IMG/VR virus record: IMGVR_UViG_3300000052_000003 | Direction: 5' to 3' (one strand) | Origin: a virus | DNA: 64,000 nt | In this document: in pieces, positions 340 to 52,924 of the stretch | How positions within the stretch are numbered: position 1 is the stretch's first letter | Layout: each line of letters begins with the position of its first letter | Program-made: the position numbers and the translations under genes | Notes under the pieces: model-generated | Told to the model about the DNA's origin: nothing | The model's input: the letters and a program-made list of their open reading frames with translations, nothing else | Databases searched by the model: none

Positions 340-405
340 TAGAAAAAAAAGTTTAAAAAAAGTTTTTATTTATCAAATCTTTTATTACCTTTACTAAGTA
401 GTCAG
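340..405 (+). promoter_or_regulatory. Early promoter P2 (A/T box-TATCAA-N9-TACCTTTA-N4-GTAGTCAG)
   Basis: Same spacing and boxes as P1 (32243-32307) and P3 (20488-20541); -7 element resembles the Bacteroidota TAnnTTTG consensus. Confidence 0.75.
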
Positions 406-432
406 TGTGCTACTAATCTAAACCCCATCAAA

Positions 433-15279: not shown

Positions 15280-15506
15280 GGTTTTTTATTTAGATGGTCC
15301 TTTATTCTTTTGGTCCTCAGGAAGGCAGCCCTCCGCTCGGATCCGTGATTATTTAAAATTCTCAATAGATTGATTCTAAGCGAATGATTTACATCATTGA
15401 TATAAACACCAGGCAGAAGGATAGATCGCGTCTCTCGTGTCAATTCTGACTCGATCCAAGCGATGCACTGCTTGTAATTGTCTGGCAGATTTTTATTAGT
15501 GTCCAT
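15276..15506 (-). CDS. Hypothetical protein
   Basis: Coupled ORF; ATG at 15506 preferred over the longer track call. Confidence 0.55.
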   Translation of the reverse strand: MDTNKNLPDNYKQCIAWIESELTRETRSILLPGVYINDVNHSLRINLLRILNNHGSERRAAFLRTKRIKDHLNKKP

Positions 15507-15849: not shown

Positions 15850-17268
15850 CTAAAATTTAGCCTCCTCGAAGGTGTGATTTATTGTATTGATCGCGCTTTG
15901 CTTATCCGAACCCGTTCCAATTTGGAACGCTTTGAGTTCCTCGTAAGAATCCGCGATTCGATTGGTAGTAACATCGACGTATCGATCAATAGTGCAAGTC
16001 TCTCCGTCTCTATTTTTAAGTATCACATAATTAAGGATATTATCGTCCGGTCCTTTGGGGGTATTGTTAGCCCTGGCGTCAGTGTACTTGTAATAGTCAT
16101 CACGATATAAACCTATAACTGCAATCGCGTCCTGCTCGACATTCCCAGAGCTTCTAATATCTGATAACTGGGGCAGTCTTGATGATCGCCCCTCTATGCC
16201 CCTGGATAACTGAGACAAGGCGATTATCGGAATCTTTAGCTTCCTGGTTAGCTTCTGGATTTTATTTGATACGGATGAAACCTGGGCAAAGTCAGACTGA
16301 TCCTTGAGCTGATTGTCTCTGATCAGTTGAAGATAGTCAATAACTACCAGGTCAATTTTATTCCGTTTGGCCTCAGATGTCAGGATCATGGACAGATAAT
16401 TAATATCACGATTATCGGAGTCATAAAAGAAGATCGGTAAGGATTTTAAGATCGAAGCGTTTGAGTTGCGGATCTTAAGGATGTCATCTGGCTTCACTCG
16501 GTTAGCTTTTAGATCGCTATACTTGTAGTCAAAATTCTCGGAGCTTATAAGTCTATACATTAGCGACTCCTTTGGCATCTCAAGCGAAAGGAATAGAACT
16601 CTTTTGCCAGATTTTGCAGCGCTCTTAGCGTGTTGCAATCCAGCGATTGTCTTTCCCATACCTGGACGCCCAGCGATAACCGTCATTCCTTCCTGGAATC
16701 CTCCAAGAATATAATTTAGATCCCTTGATCCAGTGTCAATCCCTGAGAATTTTATCTTTCCAGCGTTTGCTTCTAGTCGATCAATCACTTGATCATAAAT
16801 AGTTGCGATATCAAACACCTCAGAGGAGGCTACCGACTTATCTAGGCTTTCAATCTCCTTATCTACGATCGTTTGTAAGTCAGAGACTTCCTTATTATCC
16901 AGGATTGCCGTCTGTAATTTGAAGGCAAGATCGTAAAATCTCCTCTTTCCTTCTGTCTCTTTTAGCTGATAGCACGATTCTTCTAGGTTGATCACACGAT
17001 CTGGCATCAATTTTAGGATCAATTCGGATGAATATCCCTTTTCTGATTCCTTTGATTTAAGCAATCTAAATACATCCGCTCTAGTGATTCTCTTATCTTC
17101 TAGAGATAACTCTTTAAATCCAAGGAATGACGCCTTAAATAAAGCGTCAGTAAAAGATTCTTCACTGACTAATTTATTAGCCTCGCTAAATAGGTGAGGA
17201 TAAGCTAGTAAGTGTGCAATGATGTCACGCTCTAGGTGAACATCGTTAAGATTTATTTTTACTGCCAT
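15850..17268 (-). CDS. dnaB: Replicative helicase
   Basis: GRPGMGKT, SLEM, IDYLQL, LSQLSR, DIRSSGNVEQDA, KNRDG. Confidence 0.95.
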   Translation of the reverse strand: MAVKINLNDVHLERDIIAHLLAYPHLFSEANKLVSEESFTDALFKASFLGFKELSLEDKRITRADVFRLLKSKESEKGYSSELILKLMPDRVINLEESCYQLKETEGKRRFYDLAFKLQTAILDNKEVSDLQTIVDKEIESLDKSVASSEVFDIATIYDQVIDRLEANAGKIKFSGIDTGSRDLNYILGGFQEGMTVIAGRPGMGKTIAGLQHAKSAAKSGKRVLFLSLEMPKESLMYRLISSENFDYKYSDLKANRVKPDDILKIRNSNASILKSLPIFFYDSDNRDINYLSMILTSEAKRNKIDLVVIDYLQLIRDNQLKDQSDFAQVSSVSNKIQKLTRKLKIPIIALSQLSRGIEGRSSRLPQLSDIRSSGNVEQDAIAVIGLYRDDYYKYTDARANNTPKGPDDNILNYVILKNRDGETCTIDRYVDVTTNRIADSYEELKAFQIGTGSDKQSAINTINHTFEEAKF

Positions 17269-17975
17269 TGTTCTGGTATTATAGGTTTGTTCTGCAATGT
17301 AGTTAAATTGCGATTATCTTGTGCTCCTGGAGTTGTATTATTTTTTTTAGGAGAAAATAATCCTTGATAATTATTAGAAATTGAGTGATTAATTGCAAGC
17401 TCTAAATCTTCATCGCTTTTATCTGACCACTCCTTTTGTAGTTGTAAGGATCCAATAAGAGTATAGCTAGACTTCTTTTCTTTTTTATAATCAAACCATC
17501 TTTGAAAAAGAAAATCTCGCTTAGTAAAATCTCCTTTGATTTTCTCTTCTTTACTTTCTTCTTCTTTACTTTCCTTTACTTTGTTGAACGGTCGTTGAAC
17601 GGTCGTTGAACGGTCGTTGCTAAGTCGCTTAGCAGCAGACTTTAAGCCAGCATCTCTACGTTGTTCTTTCATCTTAAAATAGGGCTCCAAATAGATCAAC
17701 ATTTTAGGAGAAAAGAATTTCTGTTCTGGATCGAGTTGAAACAATTCGTAGTTGCAGATCACGACTCTGATCTTCTGCTCTGAGGTTCCAAACTCTTCAG
17801 CTAATAGATCAATGTCTTCGATTGGATACATCAAATCTTGTTGCTCTCTTAGCGTCTCCAATAACATAAAATAAATACCGTACCCTTCAAGTCCGAGCTC
17901 CTTTCTTAGTCGCTTAATCTTTCGATCATGTCTAGCGTTACAAAAGTGTGGGAAATAATAAGCGTCTTTTTGCAT
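17259..17975 (-). CDS. Replication initiator (DUF4373/Lin1244-like N-terminal domain)
   Basis: YFPH...DRKIKRLRKELGLEGYGIYFMLLE N-terminus; internal iterons; upstream of dnaB. Confidence 0.8.
   Translation of the reverse strand: MQKDAYYFPHFCNARHDRKIKRLRKELGLEGYGIYFMLLETLREQQDLMYPIEDIDLLAEEFGTSEQKIRVVICNYELFQLDPEQKFFSPKMLIYLEPYFKMKEQRRDAGLKSAAKRLSNDRSTTVQRPFNKVKESKEEESKEEKIKGDFTKRDFLFQRWFDYKKEKKSSYTLIGSLQLQKEWSDKSDEDLELAINHSISNNYQGLFSPKKNNTTPGAQDNRNLTTLQNKPIIPEQWQ
17545..17619. repeat. Putative replication origin: 3.4 x 11-bp GTTGAACGGTC iterons plus adjacent TCTTTACTT repeats
   Basis: Tandem repeat 17583-17619 inside the initiator gene, lambda O-like arrangement. Confidence 0.75.
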
Positions 17976-18693: not shown

Positions 18694-18708
18694 TGTCTTG
18701 GTTAGATG

Positions 18709-18746
18709 TGGGCCAGCCTAGATGACCGGCCCAGTTTACAAATATA
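18709..18746 (-). promoter_or_regulatory. -7 element TATATTTG followed by a 5' hairpin (TGGGCC/GGCCCA)
   Basis: CAAATATA at 18739-18746 on +; stem arms 18709-18714 and 18728-18733. Confidence 0.55.
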
Positions 18747-19013: not shown

Positions 19014-19116
19014 CTTGCTTTATTTGAGATGTGATGTAAAGTTTACGACGATCATTTTGAAGCTCTCTGGCTATGTGATCCATCCAGTCATTGAAATTAA
19101 GCTTGTTCGTATTCAT
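18931..19116 (-). CDS. Hypothetical protein (61 aa)
   Basis: ATG overlaps upstream stop; overlaps the next gene at its 3' end. Confidence 0.45.
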   Translation of the reverse strand: MNTNKLNFNDWMDHIARELQNDRRKLYITSQIKQDANIQRVSRAKSQDLRRVQTLCLFADQ

Positions 19117-20127: not shown

Positions 20128-20238
20128 TTAAAGGTTTGAAATGATTGTGATTACTGATAAAATTCCGATGATAATCAGAGTTAGGATAGTAGCCTGGGCT
20201 AGTTCAGATCCTGGGATTGTTTTTAATAATTCTCTCAT
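20128..20238 (-). CDS. Small membrane peptide, 36 aa (MRELLKTIPGSELAQATILTLIIIGILSVITIISNL)
   Basis: Hand-translated; ACATCTA leader; fills the gap upstream of the SSB gene. Confidence 0.6.
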   Translation of the reverse strand: MRELLKTIPGSELAQATILTLIIIGILSVITIISNL

Positions 20239-20290
20239 TTGGATAGATGTTTAAAGATTGCCAGGGAATCAGCCCTGGCTCTGTTATGAA

Positions 20291-20458: not shown

Positions 20459-20487
20459 GATTTAGATGTTTTGTAGTTGCTTCGTTG

Positions 20488-20541
20488 CTGACTACATGAC
20501 AAATTTAATACCTTTTTTGATATAAAAAAACTTTTTTTAAA
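20488..20541 (-). promoter_or_regulatory. Early promoter P3 (A/T box-TATCAA-N9-TAAATTTG-N4-GTAGTCAG)
   Basis: Identical spacing to P1 and P2. Confidence 0.8.
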
Positions 20542-20567: not shown

Positions 20568-20600
20568 AAAAAAAGCCCAAGGATAAGATCCCAGGGCTTT
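20568..20600 (-). terminator. Intrinsic terminator ending the minus-strand late transcript / sRNA
   Basis: GCCC..GGAT-loop-ATCC..GGGC stem followed by U7 on the minus strand. Confidence 0.8.
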
Positions 20601-20636
20601 AGTATTCACATCTAAACCTATACTATGAAAAACAAT
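20568..20636 (-). ncRNA. Candidate antisense sRNA targeting ACATCTAA(AC) leaders of early genes
   Basis: TAAATTTG promoter at 20641-20648, TAGTAT/ATACTA stem with loop AGGTTTAGATGTGA, then terminator; 5' end estimated. Confidence 0.55.
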
Positions 20637-20645
20637 TAAACAAAT

Positions 20646-21638
20646 TTACACTATTTTTCCTTCTTTAATCATAAGATTCGAAACTTTACTTTTGCCGTCT
20701 TTAATTTCTACCAGTGCGAAGCCGTGATTATGCTGGGCAAAAGGATAGTATTTGGGAGACAAGTGAGTCAGGCACCCAGTCGAATAGGAATGAATGAAGT
20801 TTTTAAACCCGTCTTTCTTTGTCGTGCTAGTGGTCCGATGAACGTGACCAATCAAGGTATTGCAGAAAGTCTTATTAAATGTAGTCTGGGAAGGATTCAT
20901 TCCGCCAGCCATGATCTCGTGTCCATGACAAACTAATAAATCTCCCATTTCCATACCTTGCCAGTCCTCTACCCACTCGATTTTTAAGTGATCCATACGG
21001 AAGAACTTATCGAATTGCAATTCGTGGAGGCCGGCGAACTCCTCCGCCTGGCTAAACAGATAGCGCTGGAATCGATTCTCGTGATTGCCTGCCTTAAAAT
21101 AGATTGGAATAGTTGGAAAGATGTCGCGAAGCTTCTGAAGAAAGTTTCTAGCCATCTCGATCTCTCGCGGGAAGTCTCTAAGATCCTTCTCCTTCTCGTG
21201 TCTAGATATCGAATAGAAGTCGAAGGTATCACCGTTCAAATAAAGGCAGTCGATCTCTTGCTCTCTTAGGTACTTAATAGCGCAGGTAAGCGCTTCTAAA
21301 GAATGAAACGGGACATGGATGTCTGATAGGATCCCGATCTTTTTTAAGTGATCTGGAAGGCGTGCACTGGTGTAATCTTTCCCGATCCCTGGCTCAATCC
21401 CAAAGCTATCGATTTCGTCCAGGTTAAATGATTCTATCTTAGCGCTTGGTCTTGTCTTTTTAAAGTATTCGGACCTATCCTTTACAGATATACCTAGTCT
21501 AGTCATCTGGCGATGAAAGGTAGATAAATCTTTATATCCGTAATTCTCCCAATTTTCACGCTCAAAATCTGCGCGAGTCATATTAGTAGAATAAAAATGC
21601 TTTTTTATCGCCTCGGATTTACCGTTGTCTTTGTTCAT
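20646..21638 (-). CDS. Calcineurin-like metallophosphoesterase with N-terminal extension
   Basis: SDIH, NGD..D, GNHE, HGHE, GHVHR metal-binding motifs. Confidence 0.9.
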   Translation of the reverse strand: MNKDNGKSEAIKKHFYSTNMTRADFERENWENYGYKDLSTFHRQMTRLGISVKDRSEYFKKTRPSAKIESFNLDEIDSFGIEPGIGKDYTSARLPDHLKKIGILSDIHVPFHSLEALTCAIKYLREQEIDCLYLNGDTFDFYSISRHEKEKDLRDFPREIEMARNFLQKLRDIFPTIPIYFKAGNHENRFQRYLFSQAEEFAGLHELQFDKFFRMDHLKIEWVEDWQGMEMGDLLVCHGHEIMAGGMNPSQTTFNKTFCNTLIGHVHRTTSTTKKDGFKNFIHSYSTGCLTHLSPKYYPFAQHNHGFALVEIKDGKSKVSNLMIKEGKIV

Positions 21639-22261: not shown

Positions 22262-22717
22262 TTAAGAGAAGTAAAGGTCAGCCTCCGCTTGACGTCGTTT
22301 AGTTAATCCAGCTAGAACCTTTCCGCCTCCCTTATTCCACTTCATAAACTCCGCGCGAATCGTCGGATCATTCGGATTAAGATTGACTTTCTTTAATAAA
22401 GTGGATGATTTTAGATTTCTTGGTCCGCAATTATAAGCAAAGGATGCAAGTGCATCGAATTGATTTTGACTGATATCGTCGCGACAGAAACTATCGACGT
22501 CTTTCTCGTAGGATTGAATTAAAAACTTTAGTAACTCTTCTGCTTTTTGAGGAGTGATCGCCGGATCTGTTAATTTTACTTTAGATCCATCTGGATAATA
22601 GCAATTTCCAAACCCGATTGTCGGAATGTTAGCAGGGCAAAGGTATGGCTTCAATTTAAGCCCCTCAAATCTTTTTATTAGATCGAGTCCTTTTTGGCTG
22701 GCTTTGGTTACTTTCAT
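22262..22717 (-). CDS. Endolysin (GH24 lysozyme)
   Basis: FEG....Y.C.A..PTIGFG catalytic region, QNQFDALASFAYNCG, GLTKRR..E. Confidence 0.92.
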   Translation of the reverse strand: MKVTKASQKGLDLIKRFEGLKLKPYLCPANIPTIGFGNCYYPDGSKVKLTDPAITPQKAEELLKFLIQSYEKDVDSFCRDDISQNQFDALASFAYNCGPRNLKSSTLLKKVNLNPNDPTIRAEFMKWNKGGGKVLAGLTKRRQAEADLYFS

Positions 22718-22985
22718 CAATTATGCCTAGTTTGGTTTTTAGGTTTGAATTTTCGGATTTTAAAGAGTGAACTTCAGCCGTTAAGACGTCTATCTTGTCG
22801 CTTAGTTCCTTCACTTTGTCAGACATTTCTTGAGCCATCTGTCTCCAGATTTCGATGGCCTTAGAGGTTTGATCGAGCTCAGAGGTTGTGATCTCAGCCT
22901 GCTCTTTTCTTCTACCTACTAGCCATCCGATCAGTGCGGCGATCGCCCCCGTGACAGATTGCCCAAGAATGTCTTCCAAATTCAT
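22665..22985 (-). CDS. Putative holin/antiholin (one N-terminal TM plus coiled coil)
   Basis: Hydrophobic N-terminus then basic residues; directly upstream of endolysin. Confidence 0.55.
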   Translation of the reverse strand: MNLEDILGQSVTGAIAALIGWLVGRRKEQAEITTSELDQTSKAIEIWRQMAQEMSDKVKELSDKIDVLTAEVHSLKSENSNLKTKLGIIDESNQSQPKRTRSNKKI

Positions 22986-27571: not shown

Positions 27572-29545
27572 TTAGTCTTTTTTTATTACCACTTGAGAAG
27601 CCCAGACGTGACGGCAAGAAGGAGAGTGTTCTCCGTCTGGCATTGTCCACCAGCCACCGCGACGATCAAATACTGAATAACCTAGGCGCAAGCTGATCGC
27701 TTCGATTTCTGCTCTGGTGTATAGCTTATCTAATTGCATCAAGCGCGCACAGAATTGTCTGCTTGGATGCGCTGCTGAGTTTCTCTGTCCTGCTGGTATC
27801 GATGATCTCCACTCGTAAGAATAACGGACCATAAAGCTACGCGTCGATGGCTTGGTGTCAGTGATCTCAGATAGGGGAGATGTTAAAATTCTCTCGACGT
27901 TTCCCCTTACATTTGTGGACTTGATCAAACCGCGCTCCTCTAAGGAGTCCATGATTTTATTTATGATCCCTAGATCCGTTTTGATCGTCCCAGCTATAAT
28001 CTCAGGAGTGATTCTTTTGTCCTTCTGGATGAGATCCAATACATTCGCCTCTAGACGCGTTAATTCTTGCGTAGCAAAGTCTAAATTCATCGCCTCCTCT
28101 AAGTCATTAGGCAAAGCAGAGAACGTGTCTCTAGTGCGAAATATGGAGTAATTACTTTTAGACTCTCCGAACTGATCAAATATCGAGATTACATCATCTT
28201 CGCTGAATCGTAAATTAGTAGAAGCTGGAGCTCCTTCTAATTCAGATCCACCTTGCTCAGCTATTAAGCCTACCAAAGCGCGGACCTCATTTGGAGTCAT
28301 TGACTCAAGTACTTTATTTGCTACTAATGGCGATAAGCTATTGATTGCATCGATCACATCCTGAGAAGTTCCAGAAGTTTTCGGTTCTAATTTAGGAGCT
28401 CCAAGTTTTTCGCGGATCTCGTCTTTAGTTAAGTTCTGCGCGATCGTAGTTTCAGAGAACTCCATACCAATCGGCTCGACTGGAATTATTTGTAGCCCAT
28501 TGATAGCACCGCGTAATTTGGCAAGTAAACTGAATACTTGTTCTTGATATATTTGCTTATCATTTACATAAGTGTTTTTAAATATCTCGTAAGAATCGCG
28601 CATTTGCTGGCGTGATCCTAATTGCCCAGGTGTAGCAATACCGAATAAATCTGGAGACGTGATCTGGTGACCAGCGTACACGTTTTTCTCAATGATTTTA
28701 TCTACGTTTGCGAAATCCTCCTTTGTAATATCAGAAGCTCCTAGATCCTCAATGATTGGCTTTCTAGAAGCATCGTTCACAAAGGAAAGAATGAACTTTT
28801 TTCCGTCGGATCCTGAGAAACGATCTGTAAATTTACGCTCTACTATTCTCTTCTCTTCATCTTGAGGCTCACCGTTAGGAAGAGTGATCAATTTTGAAGC
28901 ACTAAATCCGGTCTGAGCATTGCCTAAAACGTGCTTAGAAACCTCGATATCTGACTCGATATAGTTTAAAGCACCAATATAACCAGGTAAAGAGTAAGCC
29001 GAAAGGTTAGGACGGTACTCTTTTAGATACAAAATCTGGGTTCCTTGAGGCAATTTGTCGTTAAAAGCGTTGTAAATAGAGCGCTTATACTTACTATCTT
29101 GCCAGTTTTCAGAGTACCAGAACTGGGTATTATCGTCATTTGTCCGGACCTTAGTATAGTCTAAGTGATAAATCTCCGAAACTTGACCAGCTATCTGGCT
29201 CCAGATTACTTGAAGATAAGCACCTCCAAACAATTCGACGTCAGTAGATACTTTTTTTAAGATATCATTTAATGATTCGAAAGGGTTTGGCTTCTCAATA
29301 AACTCCTGAGCGATCTGATCGTTTTCATCTACTGGTTTAAAGCCATTACCAGTGATATAATTTACCTTGCTTTTAATAATCGCGTTATGCTTAGCTGATT
29401 TAGTAAACAAATCGACCAAGTAATTAGGGTAGTCGTTCTTTTTTCCGAACTCAATATATCCGCCGTTCTCTCCTTTTTTCTCAGAGTATTCTGGCTGCCT
29501 TGCTTCAGCAAAGGTAAGGACATTTAAAAAGTTTGTATTGCTCAT
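27572..29545 (-). CDS. Portal protein with C-terminal winged-helix and MuF-like extensions
   Basis: Portal-like core (HNAIIKSK..YITGNG, GHQITSP.LFGI); C-terminal SRQFC and CRHVW motifs. Confidence 0.85.
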   Translation of the reverse strand: MSNTNFLNVLTFAEARQPEYSEKKGENGGYIEFGKKNDYPNYLVDLFTKSAKHNAIIKSKVNYITGNGFKPVDENDQIAQEFIEKPNPFESLNDILKKVSTDVELFGGAYLQVIWSQIAGQVSEIYHLDYTKVRTNDDNTQFWYSENWQDSKYKRSIYNAFNDKLPQGTQILYLKEYRPNLSAYSLPGYIGALNYIESDIEVSKHVLGNAQTGFSASKLITLPNGEPQDEEKRIVERKFTDRFSGSDGKKFILSFVNDASRKPIIEDLGASDITKEDFANVDKIIEKNVYAGHQITSPDLFGIATPGQLGSRQQMRDSYEIFKNTYVNDKQIYQEQVFSLLAKLRGAINGLQIIPVEPIGMEFSETTIAQNLTKDEIREKLGAPKLEPKTSGTSQDVIDAINSLSPLVANKVLESMTPNEVRALVGLIAEQGGSELEGAPASTNLRFSEDDVISIFDQFGESKSNYSIFRTRDTFSALPNDLEEAMNLDFATQELTRLEANVLDLIQKDKRITPEIIAGTIKTDLGIINKIMDSLEERGLIKSTNVRGNVERILTSPLSEITDTKPSTRSFMVRYSYEWRSSIPAGQRNSAAHPSRQFCARLMQLDKLYTRAEIEAISLRLGYSVFDRRGGWWTMPDGEHSPSCRHVWASQVVIKKD

Positions 29546-30605: not shown

Positions 30606-31568
30606 TTAAGCTAAGATAAAATCAACCATCTCAGCAGGGAAAGCGATCTGAACGCCAGCCTTGAACTCAGCTACGAAACGAACTTGATCCGCTTCTTTAG
30701 CGAAGAACAATTCGAAACGCTCTTGCTCATCTAATAAGTCAGTTCCAAAGAACATGTTAGAAACGCGACCACCGTAGATCTTAGAAGTACCGTTCAAACC
30801 TTGAACTGCTACTACTTTTACCGTAGTACCTGGAAGCATTAACTCAGAATCTGCCTTGCCATCAAAATTGTAAGCGAATAAGTTCGCGTTCTTTAATGCG
30901 ATTGTGTAAGTACGGAATACATCCATTCCTACGAAGATAGTCACATCATCCTTAGCTACGATCTCAGCAGGTAAAGCCTTGTAAACTGCGTCGATTACGT
31001 TGATCACGTTTGAAGTAGTGATACCAGCTGAAGCAGCTAATGGAGTACCGTAAAAAGTAGTCGTGTTAGCGTGGATTACTGAAGCAGAAGCAGCAGCTAC
31101 TAACTTAGCGAAACCGTCGAACTTGTTTAAGTTTCCGTTTGCTGAAGCAGTGTCTCCTTGCCAAGAAGCGATCTCTAATTGAGCAGCGATCTTGTCAGCC
31201 TTACGTTGTGAGTACTCAGCAGCGAATACGATTGAATCGTAAGAAGAACCAGCAGGTAAAGCCTTCTGTAAATACTTAGATTCTAAATCTTTCGGGCAAA
31301 GTTCCTCGTTTACCTTAATCTTTCCTACCGTTAAAGTACGTTGTGTGAAAGTAGTTGTACCTGAAGCGTTGAAACCGCAAGATGAACCATCTTGGAAGAA
31401 CGCGTCAGTGTCCATGATATTAACCGTTTCAGCAGACTTAACGCCTAACATCACGTTTCCTTGATCCTTGATCAAAGAGATTGTTTTTGCACCTAATACA
31501 GATGAAGCTACTAATTGGGTAGCGTTCTCTTCTGTATAGTTAGCTAATGAAGATACTACAAATGCCAT
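30606..31568 (-). CDS. Major capsid protein
   Basis: 320 aa after scaffold; HK97-type layout (ADKIAAQLE..WQGD, FDG), highly biased codon use. Confidence 0.9.
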   Translation of the reverse strand: MAFVVSSLANYTEENATQLVASSVLGAKTISLIKDQGNVMLGVKSAETVNIMDTDAFFQDGSSCGFNASGTTTFTQRTLTVGKIKVNEELCPKDLESKYLQKALPAGSSYDSIVFAAEYSQRKADKIAAQLEIASWQGDTASANGNLNKFDGFAKLVAAASASVIHANTTTFYGTPLAASAGITTSNVINVIDAVYKALPAEIVAKDDVTIFVGMDVFRTYTIALKNANLFAYNFDGKADSELMLPGTTVKVVAVQGLNGTSKIYGGRVSNMFFGTDLLDEQERFELFFAKEADQVRFVAEFKAGVQIAFPAEMVDFILA

Positions 31569-32242: not shown

Positions 32243-32307
32243 TAGAAAAAAAAGTTTAAAAAAGTTTTTTATTATCAATTACTTTTGTATCTTTGATATG
32301 TAGTCAG
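32243..32307 (+). promoter_or_regulatory. Early promoter P1 (A/T box-TATCAA-N9-TATCTTTG-N4-GTAGTCAG), divergent from the scaffold gene
   Basis: Near-identical to P2; its 3' part also appears at 1-19. Confidence 0.8.
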
Positions 32308-32336
32308 AACGACAAAACATCTAAACAATAAAAGTC

Positions 32337-52855: not shown

Positions 52856-52924
52856 AAAAAAAGCCCAAGGATAAGATCCCAGGGCTTTAGTATTCACATC
52901 TAAACCTATACTATGAAAAACAAT
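52856..52924 (-). ncRNA. Candidate antisense sRNA, copy 2
   Basis: Copy of 20568-20636. Confidence 0.55.

Follow-up and report, generated by a model that had tools for sequence, protein, structure and literature searches.

The window analysed here is the whole 64,000-nucleotide (nt) stretch of IMG/VR virus record IMGVR_UViG_3300000052_000003, which encodes a tailed phage. On its minus strand, the metallophosphoesterase gene (20646-21638) is followed by a short element at 20568-20648 and then by the early operon, whose first gene starts at ATG 20458. This element, a putative small RNA (sRNA) gene whose predicted product is complementary to the leaders of early genes, is the subject of the present analysis; early and late denote classes assigned from gene order. 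The window comprises about two successive copies of a 32,288-bp genome, which differ by 0 mismatches, so that every feature recurs at +32288, and a second copy of the predicted small RNA lies at 52856-52924. The start regions in the window are A-rich and devoid of a Shine-Dalgarno sequence, the promoters have a TAnnTTTG look, and the only cultured relatives that turned up are phages of Nonlabens (Flavobacteriaceae), with a portal identity of 26%; for these reasons the host is most likely a Flavobacteriia-type bacterium. Both phage and host are uncultured, and a search for a near-identical phage record yielded none.

Anatomy of the predicted RNA element

The element begins with a -7 box of the Bacteroidota type, TAAATTTG (20641-20648, minus strand), which overlaps the phosphoesterase gene such that the stop codon TAA (20648-20646) supplies the TA of the box. 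The sigmaA box of Flavobacterium spans -12 to -5 (PMC9723704), which together with the position of the box places +1 at A 20636 and gives a predicted small RNA of 69 nt (20568-20636, minus strand), with its 3' end in the U-run of a terminator. Module 1 of this RNA, UUUUUCAU (20625-20632), is the complement of AUGAAAAA and represents a putative anti-start-codon, whereas module 2, the seed AUAGGUUUAGAUGUGA (20606-20621), combines a core AUAGGUUUA that is conserved with a 3' part, GAUGUGA, that is specific to the lineage. A weak hairpin (hairpin 1, 20600-20625) pairs UAGUAU (20625-20620) with AUACUA (20605-20600), and the 14-nt loop AGGUUUAGAUGUGA (20619-20606) lies between its arms. The RNA ends with the intrinsic terminator AAAGCCCUGGGAU..AUCCUUGGGCU7 (20568-20599), a GC-rich hairpin with a U7 tail identified by a terminator scan. 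The sequence-only reading of this DNA had placed the box, UUUUUCAU, the loop AGGUUUAGAUGUGA and the terminator at these coordinates on the minus strand, and all of them were found there.

The 69-nt RNA folds with -18.5 kcal/mol (z = -2.7). In the minimum free energy (MFE) fold, a UUCAUA/UGUGAA pairing takes the place of the UAGUAU/AUACUA hairpin; the seed is mostly unpaired with either fold, with a mean unpaired probability of 0.74 in the window RNA and 0.45-0.69 in the groups of relatives described below. The 6-bp hairpin with a 14-nt loop proposed in the earlier reading is present, but it is weak, differs from the MFE fold and lies outside the consensus structure of the relatives, and its role as a conserved display of the loop was rejected on these grounds. 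Searching the whole genome with Rfam cmscan at E <= 1 gave a single weak match, to a microRNA model and at another place, and 20568-20648 remained without a match. The possibility of a small opposite-strand gene was also rejected, because the frame that opens with its ATG (ATGAAAA...) varies from 3 to 45 codons among relatives and is not conserved, as would not be expected of a coding gene.

Relatives were collected by an IMG/VR search with the phosphoesterase, which gave 80 loci with a protein identity of 64-95%, including ~60 distinct loci that carry the element. Of 61 distinct relatives, 44 have an exact TAnnTTTG no more than 32 nt before the (T)TTCAT module, and relaxed matching raises this to 54 of 61, compared to a background of 2.5%. 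In 11 loci, an HNH-type gene (MEIWK...) is inserted directly after the phosphoesterase stop; the RNA element still follows, and a TAnnTTTG-like box again precedes it, at the end of the inserted gene. The insert is a homing-endonuclease-like gene of 156-168 amino acids (loci L005, L008, L009, L026, L036, L038, L061, L064 and L068-L070). It has a structured and conserved leader of ~100 nt (AGCAACTGCAACTGCTAAC...), and a TAnnTTTG box precedes the insert as well as the small RNA.

According to the terminator scan, 20599-20568 is the only intrinsic terminator after the capsid-to-phosphoesterase operon. Its consensus structure, calculated with RNAalifold from 53 sequences, has 13 pairs, 10 of which show compensatory double changes, and the terminator is by this alignment under structural selection. 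The RNA element closes the late/lysis operon, which comprises the capsid-like protein (30606-31568), the portal (27572-29545), a fibre-like protein, the endolysin (22262-22720) and the phosphoesterase, and the early operon comes next. A replication initiator, RusA, a large terminase and a tape measure were also identified in the window. An integrase or repressor was not seen among the proteins scanned, in a scan that was not exhaustive, and a lysogeny or immunity context was likewise not found there. With its own box and the sole terminator of the operon, the RNA may have two sources, namely a promoter of its own and the late transcripts, each of which would carry it at the 3' end. It could be a processed end of the late transcript; a promoter of its own, combined with the terminator of the operon, is favoured, because the -7 box is conserved beside the element.

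Complementary sites in early-gene leaders

Eight leaders in the window are complementary to the seed over 7-10 nt, no more than 20 nt from the start codon. On the minus strand, these sites are ACAUCUAAA (20461-20469), 2 nt before ATG 20458 of the 55-amino-acid gene that opens the early operon; ACAUCUA (20244-20250), before ATG 20238 of a conserved 36-amino-acid gene (20128-20238); UCACAUCU (19027-19034), before ATG 19013 of an 88-amino-acid gene (phrog_13625); CACAUCUAA (18702-18710), before ATG 18693 of a 63-amino-acid gene; and CAUCUAAA (15289-15296), before ATG 15279 of a 114-amino-acid gene. On the plus strand, ACAUCUAAAC (29-38) precedes ATG 49 of a 95-amino-acid gene in an early cassette, AUCUAAACC (416-424) precedes ATG 433 of a 28-amino-acid open reading frame (ORF), and ACAUCUAA (528-535) precedes ATG 540 of a 188-amino-acid gene (phrog_37844). 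All eight had been listed in the sequence-only reading, and all of them read in the sense of the mRNA and precede the ATG by 2-15 nt. Its further observations, that three target genes (540, 15279 and 20458) begin with ATGAAAAA and that the remaining copies of at least 8 nt lie within coding sequences or antisense to genes, hold as well. The target proteins are small and without known function.

Counting against shuffled sequences, as that reading had suggested, revealed an excess of the motif. ACATCTAA occurs 14 times in the window, that is 7 per genome copy, compared to 3.0 per window in the shuffles, or an expectation of ~1.5 per genome copy. A match of at least 8 nt to the loop complement is present in 7 of 52 start regions (-30 to +3), against 0.31 for permuted 14-mers (P ~1e-4), and among permuted and other 14-mers only poly-A words reach 7 of 52. 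The leaders of ATG 49, 433 and 20458 are three homologous promoter-leader cassettes of ~90 bp each, composed of an A/T box, TATCAA, TAnnTTT(G/A), GTAGTCAG and the motif; as paralogs, they are not independent occurrences of it.

RNAduplex, applied to the 5' 37 nt of the RNA and all 52 start regions of the window, placed the motif-bearing regions at 8 of the top 11 ranks, with gene 18693 forming the best duplex of the 52 (-21.1 kcal/mol, compared to a mean of -11.8 and a standard deviation of 3.2). Bipartite duplexes are predicted for 20458, 15279 and 540 (-17.0, -16.0 and -15.2 kcal/mol, respectively), in which UUUAGAUGU pairs with ACAUCUAAA and UUUUUCAU with AUGAAAAA, covering approximately -12 to +8. 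A candidate extra target, AAACCUAUA (17280-17288, minus strand), lies 12-20 nt before ATG 17268 of the DnaB helicase gene (15850-17268, minus strand). It is the complement of the conserved UAUAGGUUU, with which it forms the duplex of rank 2 (-17.3 kcal/mol), and it is also found in relative L002. As a target across groups the DnaB leader was rejected, since it is not conserved outside group A and is not an orthologous feature in group-B genomes. When raw RNAduplex energies were taken for all pairs of small RNA and leader, pairing between U-runs and A-runs dominated and cognate pairs were poorly separated from foreign ones; exact-match statistics were therefore used.

Early mRNAs seem to open with a 5' hairpin, located in the window at 20470-20495 (minus strand) and at 32297-32325 and 395-420 (plus strand). 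It keeps its pairing while changing its sequence, from GUAGU..ACUAC in the window to AUAUC..GAUAU round a conserved GAAAGCAACGAAGCUGA loop in many relatives, and may be a 5'-end stabiliser. The motif complementary to the seed, termed the address, begins 2-4 nt after this hairpin.

Seed and leaders in related phages

The ~60 distinct loci share a common order of phosphoesterase stop plus TTTG, variable spacer, (U)UUUCAUA(G), seed, terminator, and early promoter with leader. According to their seeds, group A includes the window and has 23 loci (seed GGUUUAGAUG, leader CAUCUAAAC), group B has 9 loci (seed GGUUUAGAAUUG, leader CAAUUCUAAAC), group C has 17 loci (seed CAUAGUUGUUG, leader ACAACAAC..AUG), and group D has 10 loci (seed GGUUUAAGUA (GGUUUAAGU), leader ACUUAAAC(C)). 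In each group, the leaders hold the exact complement of the group's own seed, and single loci behave likewise, such as L025 with seed GAUAAGGUUUA and leader UAAACCUUAUC. Leaders of orthologous genes change along with the seeds. Those of the 36-amino-acid gene carry (A)AUCAUCUAAA or ACAUCUA in group A, ACAAUUCUAAAC in group B and ACAACAAC in group C, each fitting its own seed, and at the 88-amino-acid gene (19013) relatives with a GAUGA seed have UCAUCUAAA at the same leader position. On a finer scale within group A, GAUGAU is matched by AUCAUC, GAUGUU by AACAUC, and the GAUGUG of the window by CACAUC, at both 18693 and 19013. The covariation of loop and leader motifs that the sequence-only reading had suggested looking for is thus found across at least four seed groups, in addition to this finer scale.

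The group-A relatives that have the plus-strand cassette keep CAUCUAAAC at the leader of ATG 49. A search with the capsid protein reached mostly group A, so this distal cassette was compared within group A only, and a locus search with the HD-hydrolase protein gave no relatives. In whole-genome scans of group-B genomes, the matches of 10-14 nt fell on the leaders of three successive early genes, shortly after the element. The 36-amino-acid ORF (MRE..., 20128-20238, minus strand) is conserved in 45 loci across groups A, B and C, always together with the address motif of its lineage, and is a real unannotated micro-gene.

Cross-comparison demonstrated that the match is specific to the cognate seed. 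In groups A, B and D, 2.3-2.8 start regions per locus contain a complement of at least 8 nt to the seed of their own group, compared to 0.2-1.4 for foreign seeds; the group C seeds have a mean best match of 5.45 in their own start regions and 1.19 in those of other groups. When the 39 distinct seeds were permuted among loci, the 561 nt matched in the own arrangement compared with 242 +/- 45 (z = 7.1), and 0 of 20,000 permutations reached 561. The matches are also oriented. Within start windows (-35 to +3), matches of at least 10 nt are in the target sense in 41 cases and inverted in 0, and those of at least 9 nt in 72 cases and 1, whereas outside the start windows the two orientations are similar (18 target sense, 27 inverted). 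A large number of sites stand before genes internal to an operon, within the coding sequence of the gene ahead. This pattern fits a strand-specific, translation-level signal that is read by a complementary RNA, and it fits poorly with a double-stranded DNA operator. A likeness of AUAGGUUUAG to a TAnnTTTA -7 box and to the sequence of the 16S 790 loop was set aside, as AUAGGUUUAG is better accounted for by its lineage-specific covariation with leaders of the same phage.

In module 1, UUCAUA(G) is nearly invariant in every seed group. Being A/U-rich and of low complexity, this module has weaker backing than module 2, and it was not retained as an independent anti-start-codon with targets of its own, for which the support is modest and of low complexity. 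The UUUUCAU module is doubled (TTGTTTTCATAGTTGTTTTTCATTAG) in L027 (5831-5935), L008 (after the insert), L034 and L035, which suggests a local duplication in the 5' part of the small RNA.

Additional repeats and look-alike words occur in the relatives. Between terminator and early promoter, tandem repeats of AATGTCTAA units are present in L001 (2455-2500) and L012, and at the same place L042, L062 and L075 have ACCTATTTTT / TAGGTTTTTAATAGGTTACCTA repeat units, which contain AGGTT/AACCT words resembling the seed core. A second sRNA-like word, TAGGTTTAGATGA, is absent from the window but appears in a late coding sequence of several group-A relatives (L007:4374, L010:1308, L018:1606 and L019:4412), ~2.6 kb upstream of the phosphoesterase stop; since its codons spell L-G-L-D, the likeness is probably a chance result of the coding sequence. 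When IMG/VR was scanned with the loose pattern TTTCATA..AGGTTTAR, most of the matches listed fell in unrelated contigs, and the scan is silent on the distribution of the family.

Interpretation and relation to known systems

Taken together, the region 20636-20568 (minus strand) is probably the gene of a ~69-nt trans-acting antisense RNA directed against early start sites. The central proposal of the sequence-only reading, a single small RNA complementary to many early leaders and acting at translation starts, gains support from the seed-leader covariation, the one-sided orientation at start windows, the compensatory changes in the terminator and the -7 box. From the sequence we infer that the RNA is transcribed, that it represses, and that it acts late. 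In the proposed mechanism, the 5' half of the RNA would be weakly structured and expose two antisense modules: UUUUUCAU would pair with AUGAAAAA, namely the start codon and the next A-rich codon, and AUAGGUUUAGAUGUG would pair with the private address (C)ACAUCUAAA(CC), located 2-15 nt before about eight early or middle start codons. The RNA would accumulate as infection advances and pair with the address-plus-AUG region of early messages. Initiation that is independent of a Shine-Dalgarno sequence and dependent on S1 needs an open start region. In a host type of this kind, with A-rich start regions, pairing over -20 to +8 should block 30S loading, and the address-bearing genes would be switched off together. 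Flavobacterium indeed has no Shine-Dalgarno sequence (PMC9723704).

Several observations weigh against this interpretation. The element lies only ~110-170 nt upstream of its strongest target, as linkage or a cis role would also have it, and pairing is seldom longer than the 8-14-nt seed. Relatives do not conserve hairpin 1. TAnnTTTG is common in this AT-rich genome, at ~38 per genome copy, so the box in the window alone means little. A search for sequencing runs containing this DNA gave DNA runs only and no RNA run, and the early class of the targets rests on gene order. In the cross test, the low-complexity ACAACAAC of group C is not distinguishable in one direction. Positions that would be informative on pairing at the RNA level are also few: the seed flanks are mostly unpaired and show 74 G:U against 53 A:C among 609 positions, and the internal single mismatches number only 15, of which 2 are G:U and 1 is A:C.

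The short distance to the first target leads to an explanation in which no free small RNA exists and the complementarity acts only in cis or as a 3' untranslated region (UTR). In a late or read-through transcript, the anti-leader would then fold back on the first early leader, which lies ~150 nt further on, or pair with early messages as part of a long mRNA tail, resulting in silencing or tuning of termination. The element indeed always lies between the last late gene and the first early promoter-leader, it contains the terminator of the operon, the only one, and its longest and strongest matches are usually on the nearest leader. Nevertheless, matching sites extend up to 5 kb downstream and recur in the opposite-strand cassette 12 kb away (29-535), so that no single transcript covers them all; moreover, the -7 box stays beside the element and the terminator is strong and conserved. 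We therefore regard the cis explanation as unlikely. The motif might instead be a protein site, an alternative already raised in the sequence-only reading, bound either by a DNA-binding regulator that recognises an asymmetric 9-14-bp site in both orientations, perhaps with a DNA loop round the early promoter that joins the leader site at 20461-20469 to the inverted copy at 20606-20619, or by an RNA-binding translational factor. The inverted pair does flank the early promoter at ~145 bp, a co-evolving DNA-binding protein would also produce covarying identical words in two orientations, and the lack of G:U support for RNA pairing points the same way. A DNA site is hard to reconcile with single, non-palindromic sites 2-15 nt before the starts of operon-internal genes that have no promoters, some of them inside the preceding coding sequence, with 41 start-region matches in the mRNA sense and 0 inverted, and with a sole inverted copy that has a -7 box, an anti-start-codon and a terminator around it. 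An RNA-binding protein, for its part, would leave unaccounted for the complement that co-varies on the same transcribed strand, and we consider a protein site quite improbable in either form.

Even if the RNA pairs with the leaders, it could activate or stabilise them or guide their processing. The computations presented here do not address the sign of regulation, and the 5' hairpin of the leaders could interplay with the site. However, the start codon and the preceding 20 nt, a region that needs to stay open, are engaged in the predicted duplexes, and no inhibitory leader structure was seen that the RNA might open, which makes such a role highly improbable. Chance similarity of low-complexity, A/U-rich sequence without any function hardly deserves credence. 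A-rich leaders do have many words in common, poly-A 14-mers match as many start regions as the motif does, and the ACAACAAC of group C is of low complexity. Against these stand the permuted seeds in the window (P ~1e-4), the cognate specificity (z = 7.1), the orientation of 41 versus 0, and several independent matched changes at orthologous leaders; nor are the loci assembly duplicates of one genome, given their phosphoesterase identity of 64-95%.

The antisense RNA favoured here resembles c4 (immI) of phages P1 and P7, a short phage-encoded RNA (PMC12197685). In both cases, exposed segments are complementary to ribosome-binding regions in genes of the same phage, seed and target diverge together between related phages, which in P1 and P7 is the basis of their heteroimmunity, and the RNA gene adjoins its targets. 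The sequence-only reading had drawn this parallel in logic and had called sequence and structure unrelated; the logic holds, and there is no match to the Rfam C4 model. They differ in several respects. The window RNA follows a -7 box of its own where a late operon ends, whereas RNase P excises c4 out of the leader of the very operon under its control; the former would have about eight dispersed targets on two strands, the latter one operon; the host type here lacks Shine-Dalgarno pairing; and c4 belongs to the immunity region of a temperate phage, a context not found among the proteins scanned in the window. The CI RNA of phage P4 is related to the c4 antisense RNA.

Other parallels concern single features. 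DapZ and MicL are enterobacterial sRNAs embedded in 3' UTRs, which have an internal promoter, use the terminator of the mRNA and act in trans with a short seed on several starts. Judged from sequence, the window element is similar in that its box overlaps the upstream stop and its terminator is common with the upstream mRNA; by contrast, those RNAs are chromosomal, Hfq-dependent and proteobacterial, whereas here a phage RNA would act against the phage's own genes. To our knowledge, the host phylum lacks Hfq. RegA of phage T4 is a late-accumulating protein repressor that binds the AU-rich start regions of many early mRNAs. In both systems one factor would shut off many early start regions together, although RegA is a protein reading AU-rich starts and the proposed RNA would read a lineage-specific address by base pairing. 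The nearest case from a lytic phage is the virulent Pseudomonas phage PAK_P3, whose sRNA1 and sRNA2 are ~100 nt long, intergenic and strongly induced late, with an 11-nt match to an early gene (PMC4933390). RNA-seq revealed these sRNAs, but each has a single phage target, predicted and weak, and lacks evidence from covariation, whereas the window RNA is predicted on strong comparative evidence.

The seed groups of the relatives would amount to at least four non-cross-reacting codes (GAUG, GAAUUG, AAGU and GUUGUUG). Lineage-specific early-gene addresses, together with one terminator-embedded sRNA that shuts off the early class, would fit selection for incompatibility, namely an RNA-based exclusion of co-infecting relatives of the same code. 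This remains a tentative and rather doubtful proposal; it resembles P1/P7 heteroimmunity, but would concern lytic-type phages and a whole regulon.

We know of very few phage sRNAs that control the phage's own programme. The classic examples, c4, CI, sar and OOP, each act on one gene or operon and belong to temperate enterobacterial phages, and a 2025 review of phage-derived sRNAs does not mention phages of Bacteroidota or Flavobacteria (PMC12197685). The seed and address variants in ~60 related genomes constitute a natural series of compensatory mutations, which is directly testable with reporters, and they suggest orthogonal RNA switches for Flavobacteria and Bacteroidota genetics. If the interpretation is true, these phages would possess an RNA counterpart of T4 RegA, with one RNA and a regulon of early start regions, acting in a phylum with initiation independent of Shine-Dalgarno sequences and a little-explored sRNA biology.

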